38,821 bases of DNA from Acidobacteriota bacterium (GTDB taxonomy: Bacteria > Acidobacteriota > Terriglobia > Acidiferrales > 2-02-FULL-67-57). Where the stretch lies: positions 1 through 38,821 of the forward strand of contig JACPRL010000183.1 in assembly GCA_016189965.1 (NCBI GenBank), read 5' to 3'. The first letter of the stretch is position 1; each line of letters begins with the position of its first letter. A program made the translations under genes and the position numbers. Shown here in pieces: positions 3,101 through 24,472 of the stretch. Under the pieces are notes generated by a model. That model made no database searches and was not told the origin of the DNA. It was given only the letters and a program-made list of their open reading frames with translations.

Positions 3101-4147
3101 CTAGCCGCTGAAGACGTAGAAAACGAGGATGAGCATCGCAGTCCCGAACAGAACACCCAAGGCCGGAGAAGCAATCGGGCCGCCCGGCTCGAGCGTGGCC
3201 AGCTTCGGGTTGCGCGGGCAATAATGCACAGGCACAGAAGTGTTGGGCACGTACCGCGCCACCTGGCGTCGCGCCGTCTCCTCCCGCCAGACAAAGTTGC
3301 CCGTGGCAAACGAGACGGTGTCGCCCACGTAGGAGAAGCCTTCGACGCTGTAGCGATAGGTGATTTCCAGCCGGTACCGGGCCAACCCCCCGGTCTCGAC
3401 CACCTCTGAATTAACAATCGTCGCCTCGGTGGTCGGCCACTGCCGACTGGCGTACATCCGAATCAGCATCCGCAGGCCATTAAACCCCACCAGCAGACCA
3501 TAAAAGCCGAAGAACCCCACGGCGAGATACGTAGCAAAGTCCTTCCTCCGCCGTTCCTCGGACCTGGGGCTGATGGCTTCGGCGCGGGCTTCGAGCTGGC
3601 GCGCTTTCGAGCCGGGAAGAAAAGACTTGAGGGGATGTTTCTTCCGCAGCATGGCGGCATAAGTCCGCAGCGTGCCGGCTACCGCGGCGTGCTCCGGGCC
3701 GTATACTTTCTCCTCCACCTCCAGGGCCCAGCGGTAGTAAGTTTCCGCCTGGTCATACTTGCCCCAATAGGTGCAAAGGTCTGCGAGGTAATGCAGACTC
3801 GAGGCCACATCGGGATGCTCCCGCCCCCACAGCCCTTCCCGAACCGCCAAGAGCTCAAGATAAAGCGGCTCGGCCTCGGCGTAGCGTCCCCGGCGCTCGT
3901 AGAAGTAACCGAAGTGAAAGAGGGTGTGGGTCAGAAAGCGGTGGTCAGCGTCCGCGAGCTCGCGCGCCTGCGCCAGTGCCTCTTTGTAATGCTGCTCGGC
4001 CTGCGCCTCGTGCCCTTGGCGGTCGGCCTGCTCGGCGGCGCGGAGGGCTTCGGCCAAGCGACGCTCATCCGCCCCAGCTAGGCGGACAGAGACCGCCAAC
4101 AAGAGAAGTAACAGCAGCACGCGTCTGACCGGGGTTCGGCTGGCCAC
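3101..4147 (-). CDS. TPR-repeat protein with C-terminal DUF3592-like membrane domain
   Basis: GTG at 4147 follows GAGGGCGGAG. Signal or TM segment VRRVLLLLLLLAVSVRLAGA. TPR_12-like repeats (YKEALAQAREL.., AEAEPLYLELLAVRE, YDQAETYYRWALEVEEKVYG). C-terminal part has TM + WPTTEATIV...YRLEITYRYSVEGFSYVGD...VPVHYCPRNPKLATLEP + TM. Confidence 0.7.
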   Translation of the reverse strand: MASRTPVRRVLLLLLLLAVSVRLAGADERRLAEALRAAEQADRQGHEAQAEQHYKEALAQARELADADHRFLTHTLFHFGYFYERRGRYAEAEPLYLELLAVREGLWGREHPDVASSLHYLADLCTYWGKYDQAETYYRWALEVEEKVYGPEHAAVAGTLRTYAAMLRKKHPLKSFLPGSKARQLEARAEAISPRSEERRRKDFATYLAVGFFGFYGLLVGFNGLRMLIRMYASRQWPTTEATIVNSEVVETGGLARYRLEITYRYSVEGFSYVGDTVSFATGNFVWREETARRQVARYVPNTSVPVHYCPRNPKLATLEPGGPIASPALGVLFGTAMLILVFYVFSG

Positions 4148-4467: not shown

Positions 4468-4530
4468 TGCGCGCAGGTTTTCTCTTTGCAAACTCTCTCA
4501 GCCCGTGCATCTGCGGTTTCACTTTGCTGG

Positions 4531-4625
4531 TAGTGGGCGTAGCCTTCGGCGAACAGCCGCGACATCGCCACTAGCGACTTCGTGCGGTCCTTGAACAACT
4601 CCGCCAGCCCCAGGAAGCGCTCCGC
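4531..4625 (-). pseudogene. duplicated 3' end of the 7038..7787 gene (orphan fragment)
   Basis: 4531..4625 matches 7039..7133 at 92/95 nt (hand count, constant offset 2508). It encodes ...ERFLGLAELFKDRTKSLVAMSRLFAEGYAH, but the stop TAA is changed to TAC. No upstream coding part is present. Confidence 0.8.
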
Positions 4626-4710
4626 GATTCAGCGTTTTCTCCGCCGCTGATCTCCGTCCTCTCTGTGCCTGCTCCCAGGGTAGTCGAAGAGTGTGCTGCA
4701 CTCATTCCGT

Positions 4711-4756
4711 GTTTCCTCTTTCCCATTTCTATTTTCTATTTTCGCTTTTCCGCTCC
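4711..4756 (+). repeat. T-rich 7-bp-periodic repeat array
   Basis: gtttcctctttcccatttctattttctattttcgcttttccgctcc. Same family as 1854..1896. A shorter relative lies at 20983..21003. Confidence 0.7.
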
Positions 4757-7037: not shown

Positions 7038-7787
7038 TTAGTGGGCGTAGCCTTCAGCGAACAGCCGCGACATCGCCACTAGCGACTTCGTGCGGTCCTT
7101 GAACAGTTCCGCCAGCCCCAGGAAGCGCTCCGCCAGTCTCCGCTCCAGCCTCTCCCGGCAGAACACCACCAGCACCACAATCTGCCCGCCCGTGTAGGCC
7201 CCGCCGGTGCCGAAGACGCTCTTCACCTTGTAGGCGGAAACAAAATCCTGCGCCGCGATGATCTTCCGCCCCTGGTGGTCGGTCGCCTCCGCCGCGTCCT
7301 CGACGAAGAACAATCCTGCCGCCCGCCCCATCGTCCGCTCAATGATGTCGGAGTCCTGGCTGTCCACCCACCCCAGCGGCACCCCCAGCTCCTTCAGCAG
7401 CCGGGCAATCATCGGGATCGTATCCACGAACGCCGACGACACCAGCGGAATCCCCATGTGCTCCTTCGAGCGCCGCCGATCGTTCCACTCCGCTTCCTCG
7501 CCGTGCGTGCCCAGCAGCGAGAGCACCGGCGTCGTCGCTTTCAACTCCCCCGCCACCCCGGCCGACTCTGCCAGCCGCCGCACGAACTGCTCCACGGTCC
7601 CCAGCAGTGCCAGATAGGGAACGGTGAGGAAGACGCGCGCCAGCACCACCGACTCGGCAAACTCGGTGTGCACCGCTGCCGCCAGCGCCTGTGCTGCCTC
7701 CTCCATCGCCCTGGCTTTTTGCACCTGTGGCTCGACGCGCGCCCACAGCTTCATCAGCGTGTCGGGAGTGGCGTCCCCGATCTTCAT
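7038..7787 (-). CDS. hypothetical protein (possibly GAF-like fold)
   Basis: ORF trimmed to MKIGDATPDTLMKLW at 7787 with RBS GAGGGGGAAG. 249 aa. No diagnostic motif recognised. The VKSVFGTGGAYTGGQIVVLVVFCRE segment is reminiscent of GAF-type domains. Confidence 0.6.
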   Translation of the reverse strand: MKIGDATPDTLMKLWARVEPQVQKARAMEEAAQALAAAVHTEFAESVVLARVFLTVPYLALLGTVEQFVRRLAESAGVAGELKATTPVLSLLGTHGEEAEWNDRRRSKEHMGIPLVSSAFVDTIPMIARLLKELGVPLGWVDSQDSDIIERTMGRAAGLFFVEDAAEATDHQGRKIIAAQDFVSAYKVKSVFGTGGAYTGGQIVVLVVFCRERLERRLAERFLGLAELFKDRTKSLVAMSRLFAEGYAH

Positions 7788-7862
7788 CGGCTTCCCCCTC
7801 GCCGTCCGGGTGCCGCGAGTCTCGAGTCGCTCTGAGGCTGCGCTGCGTGAGGTGATGCCCGG

Positions 7863-7891
7863 ATTCTCCCCCCGCGCCCCCACCCTGTCAA
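7863..7891 (-). promoter_or_regulatory. sigma70-like promoter for the 7038..7787 gene
   Basis: The minus strand reads TTGACA-N17-GAGAAT, about 75 nt upstream of the ATG at 7787. Confidence 0.45.
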
Positions 7892-7940
7892 CACCAACGG
7901 GTCGCGGGTCACGAACCACGAGTCACGCTCTTATCCGCGT

Positions 7941-7992
7941 CTATCTGTGCCTGCCCGCCGTAGCCTTGGCGAAGGCGGGTGCATCTGTGGTT
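7941..7992 (+). repeat. CTGTG-family repeat copy split by a GC hairpin
   Basis: ctatctgtgc + hairpin cccgcc-gta-gcc-tt-ggc-gaa-ggcggg (7954..7979) + tgcatctgtggtt (7980..7992). The last part equals positions 18-30 of the 30-mer at 9658. Confidence 0.7.
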
Positions 7993-8014
7993 TCAATCAG
8001 TTAGAATCGCCGCC

Positions 8015-9187
8015 ATGCTCCGCTTCCACACCGCCGGCGAGTCGCACGGCCAATGCCTCACCGCACTCGTTTCCGGCCTCCCCCTCGGCGTCCCGGTCGA
8101 CCTCGTTTTCATCAACCGCGAACTCCGCCGCCGCCAGGCCGGCTACGGTCGCAGCACGCGGATGAAGCTCGAGCATGACCAAGTTGCCATCCTCTCTGGC
8201 GTCCGGCACGGGCAGACCATCGGCTCGCCCGTCACGCTTCAAATCGAAAACAAAGACTGGGCCAACTGGGAAGACACCCTGCCGGTCGAAGACAAGCCCG
8301 TCCCGCCGGAAAAGCAGCGCCCGCTCACCCAGCCCCGCCCCGGCCACGCCGACCTCGCCGGCGCGCTGAAGTTCAACCTCCACGACGCGCGCTACATCCT
8401 CGAGCGCGCCAGCGCGCGGGAAACCGCTGCCCGCGTCGCCGCCGGCGCCCTGGCCAAGCCCTTCCTCCGCGCCTTCGGCATCGAAGTCCTGAGCCACACG
8501 GTCGCCATCGGCGCCGTCCGCCTCGAGCGCGCAGCAGCCTGGGAGGAAATTGTCGGCGCCTGCCAGGACCCCGACGCTGAAATCCGCTGCGTCGATGCTG
8601 CCCGGGGCGCGGAGATGAAAAAGTTGATTGACCGCGCCATCGCTGACCGCGACTCTCTCGGCGGCGTCTTCGAAGTCGTCGCTCACAACGTCCCGCCCGG
8701 CCTCGGCTCTCACACCCACTGGGACGAGCGGCTCGACGCCCGCCTCGCTCAGGCCCTGATGTCCATCCCGGCGGTCAAAGCGGTCGAAATCGGCTCCGGC
8801 ATCTCGAACGCCTTCGCCTTCGGCTCCCAGGTGCACGACGAAATCCTCTACGACCCCGCCCGCCGCCGCTTCACCCGCCCCTCGAACCACGCCGGCGGCC
8901 TCGAAGGTGGAATGACCAACGCCGAAGACCTCGTCCTCCGCGGCTACCTCAAACCCATCTCCACCCTCCGCCGCCCCCTGCGCTCGGTTGACCTCGTCAC
9001 CAAAGAGCCGGTCAAGGCCGCCTATGAGCGTTCCGACGTCTGCGTCGTCCCCGCCGCCGGCGTCATCGGCGAAGCCATGGCCGCGCTAGAGCTCGCCGCC
9101 GCCTTCCGCGAAAAATTCGGTGGCGACACGCTCGAGGTAGCCCGCCGCATCTTCTCCGCCTACCTCACCCAACTCCAAAACTTTTGA
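8015..9187 (+). CDS. aroC: chorismate synthase
   Basis: MLRFHTAGESHGQCL... carries the chorismate synthase signature (GESHG). 390 aa. ORF 7979..9187 trimmed to the Met at 8015. Confidence 0.95.
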   Translation: MLRFHTAGESHGQCLTALVSGLPLGVPVDLVFINRELRRRQAGYGRSTRMKLEHDQVAILSGVRHGQTIGSPVTLQIENKDWANWEDTLPVEDKPVPPEKQRPLTQPRPGHADLAGALKFNLHDARYILERASARETAARVAAGALAKPFLRAFGIEVLSHTVAIGAVRLERAAAWEEIVGACQDPDAEIRCVDAARGAEMKKLIDRAIADRDSLGGVFEVVAHNVPPGLGSHTHWDERLDARLAQALMSIPAVKAVEIGSGISNAFAFGSQVHDEILYDPARRRFTRPSNHAGGLEGGMTNAEDLVLRGYLKPISTLRRPLRSVDLVTKEPVKAAYERSDVCVVPAAGVIGEAMAALELAAAFREKFGGDTLEVARRIFSAYLTQLQNF

Positions 9188-9217
9188 AACCACAGATACA
9201 CACAGATGCACACAGAT
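9188..9217 (-). repeat. CTGTG-family 30-mer, inverted copy (left arm of the GxxExxY cassette)
   Basis: AACCACAGATACACACAGATGCACACAGAT matches the reverse complement of 9658..9687 at 28/30 (hand count). Confidence 0.85.
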
Positions 9218-9595
9218 AAGGCAGAGCCGGATTACCCGGAGGCAGAGCTCACCGAGAAGATTCTTGCCGCCGCTTTCAAAGTGCAGAATGTCTTGGGTTG
9301 CGGCTTCTTGGAAAAAGTCGACGAGAACGCATTGGTCGTCGAACTGAGCCGGCAGCAGCTACGCACCCAGCAGCAGAAGCCTCTGCAGGTGAGATACGAA
9401 GGCGCGATTGTTGGCGAGTATACGGCTGACCTCGTGGTTGAGGATCGCGTGATCGTCGAGTGCAAAGCCGTCACGCAACTCGACCCCGTCCATGAAGCTC
9501 AACTGCTAAACTACCTGAAGGCAACGGGCATCCGTGTCGGCTTGCTGCTGAACTTCGGCCGTCCGAAGCTCCAGTACCGCCGCTTTGTAGCTTAG
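9206..9595 (+). CDS. GxxExxY protein (PD-(D/E)xK nuclease-fold family, PDDEXK_3-like)
   Basis: 129 aa. Contains GAIVGEYTADLVVEDRVIVECKA (GxxExxY followed by a D..E.K-type core) and LLNYLKATGIRVGLLLNF, as typical for the family. Confidence 0.85.
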   Translation: MHTDKAEPDYPEAELTEKILAAAFKVQNVLGCGFLEKVDENALVVELSRQQLRTQQQKPLQVRYEGAIVGEYTADLVVEDRVIVECKAVTQLDPVHEAQLLNYLKATGIRVGLLLNFGRPKLQYRRFVA

Positions 9596-9657
9596 GGCGA
9601 TATGCGCTTGCTGTTGGGGGCTCGTGCGTCGGACCCAGATGATTGGAGTCTGTCAAA

Positions 9658-9687
9658 ATCTGTGTGTATCTGTGTGCATCTGTGGTT
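9658..9687 (+). repeat. CTGTG-family 30-mer (three 10-bp units)
   Basis: ATCTGTGTGT ATCTGTGTGC ATCTGTGGTT. Identical 30/30 to 24443..24472. Ends 3 nt before the def ATG. Confidence 0.9.
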
Positions 9688-9690
9688 CCA

Positions 9691-10200
9691 ATGATTTATC
9701 CGATTGTTAAATACGGGGCGTCGGTGCTGGAACACAAGGCGGCGCCGGTGACCGCCTTCGACGCCAAGCTCGCCCGGCTCGTCGAAGACATGTTCGAGTC
9801 CATGTACGCCGCCCACGGCGTCGGCCTCGCCGCCCCCCAGATCGGTATCCCGCTTCAGCTCGCCGTCATTGACACGACCAGCGGCGCTGACCCCGCTGCC
9901 CGCCTCGTCCTCGCCAACCCGGAAATCCTCGCCACCGAAGGCAAGCAGAACGAAGAGGAAGGCTGCCTGAGCCTCCCCGGCTTCCACGCCGTCATCCGCC
10001 GCCCCGCCCGCGTCACCGTCCGCGCCCAGAATGTCTCCGGCAAGCCGTTCACCCGCACCGGCGAAGCCCTCCTCGCCCGCGCCTTCTGCCACGAGATTGA
10101 CCACCTCCACGGCCGCCTCTTCCTCGCGCATCTCTCCGCGCTGAAGCGCGACCTCATCCGCCGCAAAATCCGCAAACTCATCAAAGCCGGCGACTGGTGA
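9691..10200 (+). CDS. def: peptide deformylase
   Basis: Contains the GVGLAAPQIG, EGCLSLPG and HEIDHLHG motifs. 169 aa from the Met at 9691. Confidence 0.95.
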   Translation: MIYPIVKYGASVLEHKAAPVTAFDAKLARLVEDMFESMYAAHGVGLAAPQIGIPLQLAVIDTTSGADPAARLVLANPEILATEGKQNEEEGCLSLPGFHAVIRRPARVTVRAQNVSGKPFTRTGEALLARAFCHEIDHLHGRLFLAHLSALKRDLIRRKIRKLIKAGDW

Positions 10201-10292
10201 CACTTCAGTGTCACCCTGAGCGGAGTCCCGACAACCGTCGGGACGCAGTCGAAGGGGCCGCTTCCTCTGTGCTCTCTGTGCCCTCTGTGGTA
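10196..10292 (+). repeat. composite intergenic element: two 8-bp-stem hairpins + GTCACCCTGAGC module + CTCTGTG-type repeat
   Basis: First hairpin ggtgacac-ttca-gtgtcacc (10196..10215) overlaps the def stop. Second hairpin gtcccgac-aacc-gtcgggac (10225..10244). Then cctctgtgctctctgtgccctctgtgg (10264..10290). Same architecture as 24379..24472. Confidence 0.7.
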
Positions 10293-11353: not shown

Positions 11354-11380
11354 TTGATTGATATCAATCAACATCAATCA
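11354..11380. promoter_or_regulatory. palindromic operator (probable antitoxin binding site)
   Basis: TTGATTGATATCAATCAA is a perfect 18-bp palindrome (11354..11371). An extra half-site ATCAATCA follows (11373..11380). It sits immediately after the -10 element. Confidence 0.6.
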
Positions 11381-11389
11381 GGAAGGACC

Positions 11390-11689
11390 ATGGTCAATCG
11401 CATCCCCCTTACGAAAGCCCGGGTCAACCTCGGGCAACTGGTGCGCCGCGTTCATGTCAACAAGGAGTACTTCATTCTGGAAAAGGACGGCATTCCAGTC
11501 GCCGGCCTGATGGACGCGGAAGAACTGGAGGACTACCTCGAGGTGCGCAACCCGAGCGTCCGAGAACACATCCGGGCCAGCCACGACGAGTATCTGGCCG
11601 GCAAGGCGCGCCCGGCGGAGGCTTTGCTGACCCGGACCAGGAAAAACAAGCGGCGTCGCTCCAGGGCTCGGCGACCTCGAAAGGCATGA
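11390..11689 (+). CDS. type II antitoxin, Phd/YefM family
   Basis: RBS AGGAAGGA. MVNRIPLTKARVNLGQLVRRV...YFILEKDGIPVAGLM. 4-nt ATGA overlap with the downstream toxin. Unusual Arg/Lys-rich C-terminal tail. Confidence 0.8.
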   Translation: MVNRIPLTKARVNLGQLVRRVHVNKEYFILEKDGIPVAGLMDAEELEDYLEVRNPSVREHIRASHDEYLAGKARPAEALLTRTRKNKRRRSRARRPRKA

Positions 11690-11976
11690 CGCTGCTTTTT
11701 CGCGTCCTGGCCACACCCCATTTTGACCACCTCTTCCGAAAACTCGGCAAACACCACCCAGATCTTCAAGGCATCTTCCGGGATGCACTCAGCACCCTGC
11801 AGACCGACCCGCACAACCGGACTCGCCGGCACGCTATCAAGAAACTCGAAGGGCTCAAGCCCGGCGAAGGGCAGTACCGGCTCCGCCTCGGGCGCTGGCG
11901 CTTTCGCTATGATATCGCCGGCCAGGACGTAGTTCTCCACTACTGCGGACTGCGCCGGGAAGAAACCTATCGCTAG
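11686..11976 (+). CDS. type II toxin, RelE/ParE family
   Basis: 96 aa. YRLRLGRWRFRYDIAGQDVVLHYCGLRREETY is the typical RelE/ParE C-terminal core. Translationally coupled to the antitoxin. Confidence 0.8.
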   Translation: MTLLFRVLATPHFDHLFRKLGKHHPDLQGIFRDALSTLQTDPHNRTRRHAIKKLEGLKPGEGQYRLRLGRWRFRYDIAGQDVVLHYCGLRREETYR

Positions 11977-12780: not shown

Positions 12781-12798
12781 CCTCTGCTCTTCCCTTCC

Positions 12799-12846
12799 TT
12801 GCCTCTTTGCCTCTTTGCCTCTTTGTTTCTTTGCCTCTTAGCCTCC
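12799..12846 (+). repeat. tandem 8-mer array (TTGCCTCT x6, two units degenerate)
   Basis: ttgcctct ttgcctct ttgcctct ttgtttct ttgcctct tagcctcc, read directly from the sequence. Confidence 0.85.
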
Positions 12847-12861
12847 TACCCCCTGTGCCTG

Positions 12862-23486: not shown

Positions 23487-23510
23487 GTGTATCTGTGTGC
23501 ATCTGTGGTT
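23487..23510 (+). repeat. CTGTG-family repeat copy (positions 7-30 of the 30-mer)
   Basis: gtgtatctgtgtgcatctgtggtt, 24/24 identical to the corresponding part of 9658..9687. Ends 15 nt before the coaX ATG. Confidence 0.85.
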
Positions 23511-24378: not shown

Positions 24379-24472
24379 GTCATTCCGCCTTTCTTTGTCA
24401 TTCTGAGCCCCGAAGCTTCGGGGCGAAGAATCCCATCGAGAAATCTGTGTGTATCTGTGTGCATCTGTGGTT
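24379..24472 (+). repeat. composite intergenic element: GTCATTCTGAGC hairpin module + CTGTG 30-mer
   Basis: gtcattctgagccccgaagcttcggggcgaagaatcc contains the 18-nt palindrome 24407..24424 with an extended stem. It is followed by the 30-mer at 24443..24472. Confidence 0.8.

Follow-up and report, generated by a model that had tools for sequence, protein, structure and literature searches.

What is a small gene from a protein family with no assigned function doing between two inverted copies of a short repeat, at an operon junction that measures only a few nucleotides in some relatives? This question is raised by a 38,821-bp stretch of DNA (the window), a whole contig of an Acidobacteria metagenome-assembled genome, in which a gene for a GxxExxY (PDDEXK_3) protein lies between aroC and def. 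Comparison of this locus with related loci and with loci chosen by their repeats suggests that positions 9184-9691 probably belong to a family of palindromic elements that is widespread, and that the GxxExxY protein probably acts on the repeat arrays at their ends. Such a partnership would resemble that of the repetitive extragenic palindromic (REP)-associated tyrosine transposases (RAYTs) with REP doublets forming hairpins (REPINs), or that of insertion sequences (ISs) with miniature inverted-repeat transposable elements (MITEs). The best-supported reading of the family is that it is mobile or formerly mobile and that its ends are arrays of predicted binding sites for its own nuclease. The element and its flanks are built as follows.

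8015-9187, + strand: aroC (chorismate synthase), bordering the insertion site on the left
9184-9691: whole element, 508 bp, composed of the arms, the GxxExxY gene, and a 3' spacer
9184-9217, + strand: left arm, TTGAAACCAC followed by three tandem decamers CACAGATRCA; it adjoins the aroC stop codon at 9185-9187
9206-9595, + strand: GxxExxY/PDDEXK_3 gene of 129 amino acids, with profile matches to PF13366 and TIGR04256
9596-9657, + strand: 3' spacer of the cassette, from the stop codon of the gene to the right arm
9658-9691, + strand: right arm, the reverse complement of the left arm; its last base is the A of the def start codon (9691)
9691-10200, + strand: def (peptide deformylase), bordering the insertion site on the right

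An earlier note on this DNA described the arms as 9188-9217 and 9658-9687, inverted with respect to each other. This match was recovered at 28 of 30 positions (two mismatches), no such match occurred in 100 shuffles, and the inverted repeat extends to 34 nt (9184-9217 and 9658-9691; 31/34, 91%). The note also spoke of a dispersed 30-mer. Copies do recur in the window, at 24443-24472, 23487-23510, 7941-7993, and 4505-4518, with a variant at 10264-10290, but there is no unitary 30-mer, as each arm is made of three tandem decamers (CACAGATRCA, 2.8 units) with the core CRCRGAY. Self-complementarity was found in neither arm (single-arm fold of 0 kcal/mol). The lower guanine-cytosine (GC) content claimed for the cassette was borne out, with 0.54-0.59 over the cassette vs 0.66-0.75 in the flanks. 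The ATG of the GxxExxY gene (9206) lies inside the left arm, as had been stated, and the repeat-encoded N-terminus is a conserved trait (M-x-T-D) of the clade, whose genes often start inside an array.

The solo repeat copies elsewhere in the window might suggest that the GxxExxY gene landed by chance beside repeats that were already there. To judge this, two samples are available. The first was selected by gene and comprises 80 metagenome loci (GC content 39 to 67%) with homologues at 48-68% identity and a total of 82 GxxExxY genes. Arms from unrelated loci resemble one another, by which a control with noncognate arms was contaminated, and pattern-based counts and shuffles were used instead. 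Most of the 82 genes are bracketed by two to four tandem units of ~10 nt with the core C-R-C-R-G-A-(T/C/A) upstream and by the reverse complement downstream. Under a strict pattern, 47 genes have both arms (left upstream, right downstream), 27 have one arm, and eight have neither; several of these eight carry variant cores outside the strict pattern (CACGAA in loci L014 and L042). Altogether, 267 arrays were counted in the 321 kb of these loci vs ~6 expected, and the distances of left-to-right pairs are bimodal, being <300 nt without a gene and 300-700 nt with one.

The second sample was selected by array, with the pattern ATCYGTG-N3-ATCYGTG-N3-ATCYGTGGTT and one genome per species. Among the array matches listed are Acidobacteria, Verrucomicrobia, Planctomycetes, Cyanobacteria, Proteobacteria, Nitrospirae, Chloroflexi, Bacteroidetes, Spirochaetes, NC10, and others, and 120 loci (843 kb) were taken from them. 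These loci hold 271 arrays, of which 129 are unpaired; the left-to-right pairs number 71 and mostly span gaps of 0-150 nt. Only five GxxExxY genes are found here, and all five (5/5) lie exactly between a left and a right arm, while most of the other arm pairs are gene-less hairpins. The expectation of the earlier note that other GxxExxY genes would be flanked by inverted copies and start inside one thus holds in the main, as most are flanked and many start inside. Gene and arrays form a unit that recurs in many phyla. With the shuffles, the same bracket around most of 82 independent genes, and the five array-selected cases all against it, a chance landing is refuted and can be set aside with near certainty.

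The gene-less hairpins are of interest in themselves. Their single strands give strong folds (z = -4.7 to -9.7), and their loops have a mean identity of 49% within the same locus vs 15% between different loci. Because loops are far more alike within a locus than between loci, whole hairpins appear to be copied within genomes as units. Arrays are depleted from long open reading frames (53% vs 88%). In a census of plasmids, only six carry a homologue, and its flanks are repeats of one unit each, inverted or direct; where plasmids of Treponema and Fusobacteria have a homologue in single copy, one CACGGAT/ATCCGTG core lies on either side. No GxxExxY gene was found in 729 kb of array-bearing contigs of IMG/VR, a collection of viral contigs. 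A separate observation on these viral contigs (L228-L307; for example, L297, L237, L248, and L251) is that neighboring solo arrays are co-oriented (47 same vs 4 opposite, p = 2e-10), independently of the direction of transcription, whereas neighboring solo arrays in the genome loci are not (12 vs 9). Replication direction or local amplification could account for this co-orientation.

How the element came to lie between aroC and def can be read from its relatives. The closest GxxExxY homologues (71-80% identity) occupy the same site in the order aroC-GxxExxY-def-fmt and have the same inverted arms; the gene cassette is present at aroC-def in the window, L001, L002-L008, and L210/L211. Arm variants are mirrored on both sides, as in L002, which has CACGGAT on the left and ATCCGTG on the right, and when the arm type is defined as the seventh base of the core, it is the same on both sides in 44/44 cassettes. 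In L209 (aroC 83% identical), the junction holds an empty hairpin of left arm, 13-nt loop, and right arm. The spacer from the aroC stop codon to the def ATG is unoccupied in L219 (8 nt; aroC 81%) and in L220 (7 nt; aroC 79%) and measures 17 nt in L221 (aroC 72%), and no arrays whatever were seen at aroC-def in the more distant relatives examined. The empty site that the earlier note had proposed to look for in relatives therefore exists, both as an unoccupied junction (L219/L220) and as a gene-less hairpin (L209). Because relatives differ at aroC-def in having a cassette, an empty hairpin, or an unoccupied spacer, the element is, on this comparison, an insertion into a very tight operon junction, with a gene-bearing, a gene-less, and an absent state. 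The loops of the empty hairpins in L209 seem to retain codons resembling the 5' end of the gene (GAT AAA GAA CAA GAG ACA AAA ...; short matches, made out by eye), and because of this resemblance it is suggested that the gene-less hairpins of L209 were derived from gene-bearing copies by internal deletion.

Between orthologues for which the rate of synonymous substitution (dS) is measurable, the ratio of nonsynonymous (dN) to synonymous substitution is 0.06-0.12, and dN is near that of aroC. On these ratios, the GxxExxY gene is under purifying selection and is not decaying. The picture of a cassette wedged into a tight neighborhood consequently stands as far as the site is concerned, with its spacer of 7-8 nt in relatives without the element, but the insertion is not a recent one: judging from its distribution, the window cassette is an old insertion that is vertically inherited at aroC-def under purifying selection. 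It was also observed that, between L002 and L210, dS of the cassette gene is ~3 times that of its neighbors (0.55 vs 0.18-0.20 for aroC and def) and is saturated in pairs that lie farther apart; codon bias may be weak in this gene, or paralogous copies may occasionally have replaced it.

The family assignment of the encoded protein, proposed earlier from the sequence alone, is firm. It matches PF13366 PDDEXK_3 with E 4e-41 and 140.5 bits (family cut-off 22) and TIGR04256 GxxExxY with E 3e-43 and 147.1 bits (family cut-off 35), and these two are its only matches in Pfam and NCBIfam. The family is very large, as 17,180 clusters at 50% identity match the window protein, and its function was given as unknown in a superfamily survey of 2012 (PMC3424549). 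Among the relatives, E36, E85, and K87 are invariant, and D75, Q99, and Y103 (the latter two forming the Q-x-x-x-Y motif of RecB/Cas4/lambda-exonuclease-type nucleases) are nearly so; the window copy keeps all six. In its N-terminal motif, G33 and E36 are present, and D39 (codon 39, 9320-9322) stands where at least 90% of the relatives have Y; Y39 is kept, for example, in the L001 and L008 orthologues. A first AlphaFold2 model from a shallow alignment (predicted local distance difference test score, pLDDT, of 66) gave meaningless Foldseek matches and was superseded by a model from a deeper alignment (pLDDT 94), which has a PD-(D/E)XK core with the order alpha-alpha-beta-beta-beta-alpha-beta-beta. 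The best PDB matches of this model in Foldseek are Cas4 SSO0001, lambda exonuclease, and related RecB-type nucleases, at template modeling (TM) scores of ~0.5. As modeled, the protein is a minimal nuclease with a RecB/Cas4-like PD-(D/E)XK fold and a complete catalytic motif set. No relative was found by a sequence search of the PDB and no match in PHROGs, and the PADLOC defense search gave nothing significant (the best match, BrxF with E 0.008, is marginal). Some proteins of 250-290 amino acids contain two GxxExxY domains in tandem (P0241, P0244, P0245, and others).

A nuclease encoded inside its own putative target brings homing to mind. The gene would then be a free-standing homing endonuclease gene whose product cuts gene-less hairpins, after which repair copies the gene into the loop with the arms serving as homology, and the hairpins themselves would spread by other means. 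The precise position of the gene, always between left and right arm, the presence/absence polymorphism at a conserved site, the nuclease fold, and the match of arm type on both sides in 44/44 cassettes would all fit such a scheme. On the other hand, the empty loops of L209 appear to keep 5' coding remnants, which (if these short matches by eye are taken at face value) makes them deletion products rather than virgin targets. Moreover, paralogues that share a locus reach only ~37-58% identity to the query and are not recent copies, and synteny together with purifying selection speaks for long vertical descent. Homing is thus considered an unlikely explanation.

Arm and protein vary together. The nearest protein neighbor has the same arm type in 70/80 cases vs 33 expected by chance, a co-variation that is partly confounded with host phylogeny. 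Two loci, L048 and L078, are free of this confounding, since each contains two GxxExxY subfamilies with their own flank types, that is, 10-nt CACAGAC units and CTC-R-CAGAG units, respectively; the core of the latter is shared with the array at 10264-10290 of the window. More divergent homologues show the same array architecture with different cores (ACCAGATGA, ACGGAAT, and CACGAA).

The arms could also have been conserved for their pairing in RNA. Here, the cassette would resemble an intervening sequence (IVS): the arms would pair as a helix of ~34 bp in the aroC-def transcript and hide the GxxExxY start codon, and ribonuclease III or another double-strand ribonuclease would excise the cassette and leave a near-leaderless def mRNA, so that the inverted repeat makes residence in the operon harmless. 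Several features of the locus agree with this. In the predicted fold of the transcript 9170-9710, the minimum-free-energy structure has an arm-arm helix that closes the whole open reading frame (ORF; z = -4.1), the base of the helix brings the aroC stop codon beside the def ATG, no Shine-Dalgarno sequence for def is found at the aroC-def junction, and the junction occupied by the cassette is only 7-8 nt long when empty. The variation between arms tells otherwise. Among the arm-arm mismatches of 47 distinct cassettes, read on the sense strand, G·U (42) is not in excess of A·C (48), and 100 others are uncompensated transversion mismatches. The mismatches cluster in the 3-nt spacers, whereas the sequence of the cores itself, beyond pairing, is conserved across phyla. 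Solo arrays are common and are oriented independently of transcription (22 vs 23), and a search of Rfam gave no match at gathering or E-value thresholds. Because there is no wobble bias, mismatches are uncompensated and fall in the spacers, and cores are conserved, the conservation of the arms looks like that of phased protein-recognition sites rather than of an RNA helix selected for pairing. An excised RNA cassette therefore has a low probability as the main explanation. RNA-level consequences of the inverted repeat are nonetheless possible, and this reading could coexist with the DNA-level one as a side effect of the inverted repeat.

A regulatory role of the arrays has to be weighed against the arrays that stand alone in the window, which are listed below.

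4505-4518, + strand: partial terminal unit GTGCATCTGCGGTT, 13/14 match
7941-7993, + strand: two units standing alone 5' of aroC, oriented like the right arm and split by a small hairpin CCCGCC...GGCGGG
10264-10290, + strand: array of a different subfamily, CCTCTGTGC repeated 2.9 times with a 9-nt period, upstream of fmt
23487-23510, + strand: two units standing alone, oriented like the right arm, whose last 24 nt they match at 24/24; the next ATG is 15 nt downstream
24443-24472, + strand: three-unit solo array with exactly the sequence of the right arm

At the position equivalent to 7941-7993, a full left arm is joined by a loop to a right arm in L209, and the core of the 10264-10290 array also flanks the divergent GxxExxY subfamily in L048 and L078. 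All solo arrays of the window precede the start codon of a + strand gene by 5-40 nt, and their 10-bp phasing is typical of cooperative protein binding. The arrays might thus be operators or other regulatory sites and GxxExxY a DNA- or RNA-binding regulator, a nucleoid-type protein or a defense factor, that controls itself and the array-adjacent genes with no mobility involved. However, since the orientation of solo arrays relative to transcription is random across the 120 genome loci (22 vs 23), the placement seen in the window is not general. The invariant catalytic residues, the insertion/deletion polymorphism and copied loops that indicate element turnover, and the lack of a significant PADLOC defense match (best BrxF, E 0.008) speak against a pure regulator as well, which makes this explanation quite improbable.

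The window contains further repeats, which are described here for their own sake. A second dispersed family of small hairpins (GTCAYYCTGAGC ... GTCGAAGGG / CGAAGAATC) is found at 10204-10256 and 24400-24437, each time directly upstream of an array, and in relatives at L002 2968-2989, L003 2965-2988 and 3457-3483, L001 ~4030-4055, and L215 ~3715-3738. A 24-nt hairpin of this family interrupts the arms of some cassettes: L003 and L210 have it in both arms, at mirrored places, and L002 in the left arm only; the mirrored placement suggests site-specific insertion into arm sequence or conversion between arms. Other short-period arrays occur at 1719-1756 / 1857-1893, 4719-4754, and 12787-12847 and consist of a 7-nt TTTCTAT-type array, with an inverted pair (1719-1756 / 1857-1893) around a 109-nt loop plus one solo copy, and of an 8-nt TTGCCTCT array with six units. 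Their layout is like that of the decamer hairpins with different units, and no associated gene was found within the window. A 100-nt direct repeat (4531-4630 and 7039-7138, 95% identity) is the duplicated 3' end of the gene at 7038-7919 (- strand) and adjoins the partial array at 4505-4518. Upstream of aroC, TAGAAT is conserved 7-11 nt 5' of the ATG (window 8002-8017, L001 ~1796-1812, L002 ~1771-1789, L008 ~1793-1811), which suggests a promoter giving a leaderless or near-leaderless aroC mRNA. After fmt lies a low-GC pair of overlapping small genes (11354-11689 and 11686-11976) that is toxin-antitoxin-like and had no match in the PADLOC search.

Which known system does the element resemble most? 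Unlike RAYTs, GxxExxY genes are usually present in multiple copies per genome. REPINs and their RAYTs have been described by Bertels and Rainey in 2011 (PMC3116915), and the earlier note had asked whether the cassette is a REP/RAYT-like unit. The comparisons that it proposed came out in favor of such a relation. The likeness is considerable: a single small gene lies between inverted copies of a short repeat, copies of this repeat are far more numerous than the gene (271 arrays vs five genes in 843 kb) and are mostly extragenic inverted doublets that can form hairpins, next to decaying singlets, the gene is vertically inherited under purifying selection, and the repeat type is tied to the protein clade. 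The enzyme, however, is a PD-(D/E)XK (RecB/Cas4-like) nuclease of ~125 amino acids, whereas RAYTs are Y1/HUH transposases of the IS200/IS605 type; the arms are phased decamer arrays without self-complementarity, whereas a REP is an imperfect palindrome with a GTAG head; and the GxxExxY gene lies inside the loop of the doublet. With no Y1/HUH transposase and no palindromic REPs in the arms, membership in the REP/RAYT family is rejected, and the element would be a functional analogue.

With ISs and MITEs, the element shares terminal inverted repeats, gene-less derivatives that outnumber the gene-bearing copies (some apparently formed by internal deletion), and presence/absence polymorphism at a given site. 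It differs in that the gene-bearing copies are old and divergent instead of near-identical and that no target-site duplication is visible. Membership here is rejected because no recombinase of the DDE, HUH, or serine/tyrosine kind is encoded. The ends of Tn7 and Mu consist of several phased copies of a protein-binding motif that are inverted at the two ends, which is also the layout of the putative sites here, and Tn7 uses a PD-(D/E)XK protein, TnsA. Tn7 and Mu depend on a DDE transposase and measure tens of kilobases, whereas the small nuclease is the only protein encoded by the present element. Finally, IVSs of 23S rRNA may contain an ORF, for example, the Coxiella IVS with S23p (PMC4990558). 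Like these, the element is a cassette of ~430-500 nt with one small ORF and inverted repeats able to form a transcript stem, and it is tolerated within an essential transcription unit. S23p is a four-helix bundle, unlike the PD-(D/E)XK nuclease family of the present ORF; in addition, the site is an mRNA junction and not rRNA, and the arms are conserved in sequence without compensatory pairing changes.

Returning to a nuclease that acts on the arrays at the ends of its own element, we infer this action (binding, cutting, or mobilizing the repeats) from sequence comparison, and the following mechanism is proposed. Each end would carry two to four phased units of ~10 bp with a conserved heptamer core (CRCRGAY here), and the loop may hold the GxxExxY gene of ~125 codons. 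The GxxExxY protein would recognize the phased cores on DNA, with several protomers on one face of the helix per end, as at multi-site transposon ends. Cleavage might take place at the element boundaries AACCAC / GTGGTT or close to them, perhaps on an extruded hairpin or on single-stranded DNA, and would mobilize the protein's own cassette and, in trans, gene-less derivatives, of which the gene-less hairpins and solo arrays would be the nonautonomous representatives.

Some observations weigh against this mechanism. No target-site duplication outside AACCAC...GTGGTT was found in 13 hairpins or at aroC-def. The long vertical persistence of the gene-bearing copies and the divergence of paralogues argue against their frequent recent transposition. 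The window copy may be impaired, because D replaces the motif tyrosine at position 39, and the co-variation of protein and arm is partly confounded with host phylogeny. Furthermore, in L168 and L082, the units within one arm are more alike than their partners in the other arm, for which reason the arms may evolve, or even arise, partly independently.

Taken by analogy, GxxExxY and its phased-decamer palindromes would be a second class of long-lived intragenomic replicators that arose independently of REPIN-RAYT and is comparable to it, driven by a minimal sequence-specific RecB/Cas4-like nuclease and present in at least 10 bacterial phyla and some viral contigs; for this wider proposal, we see the case as evenly balanced. 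A published description of an association between GxxExxY and repeats was not found in an incomplete coverage of the literature, and an earlier account is possible. Apparently new here are the enzyme class and the repeat architecture, while a gene flanked by repeats that it presumably disperses is known already.

GxxExxY/PDDEXK_3 is among the larger bacterial families without a function, and the motif link turns this into a testable hypothesis, namely, that the protein binds and cleaves phased CRCRGAY cores. Should this be true, a very large family of so-called unknowns would gain a function, and gene-repeat partnerships in the style of REPIN-RAYT would have arisen more than once, with unrelated enzymes. 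A widespread class of intergenic repeats, from Acidobacteria to Cyanobacteria and Spirochaetes, would be explained, and a sequence-specific nuclease of ~125 amino acids with a modular, phased recognition site would be at hand. The annotation of repeat-encoded N-termini (MxTD), of cassette-bearing operon junctions, and of assembly breaks would benefit as well.

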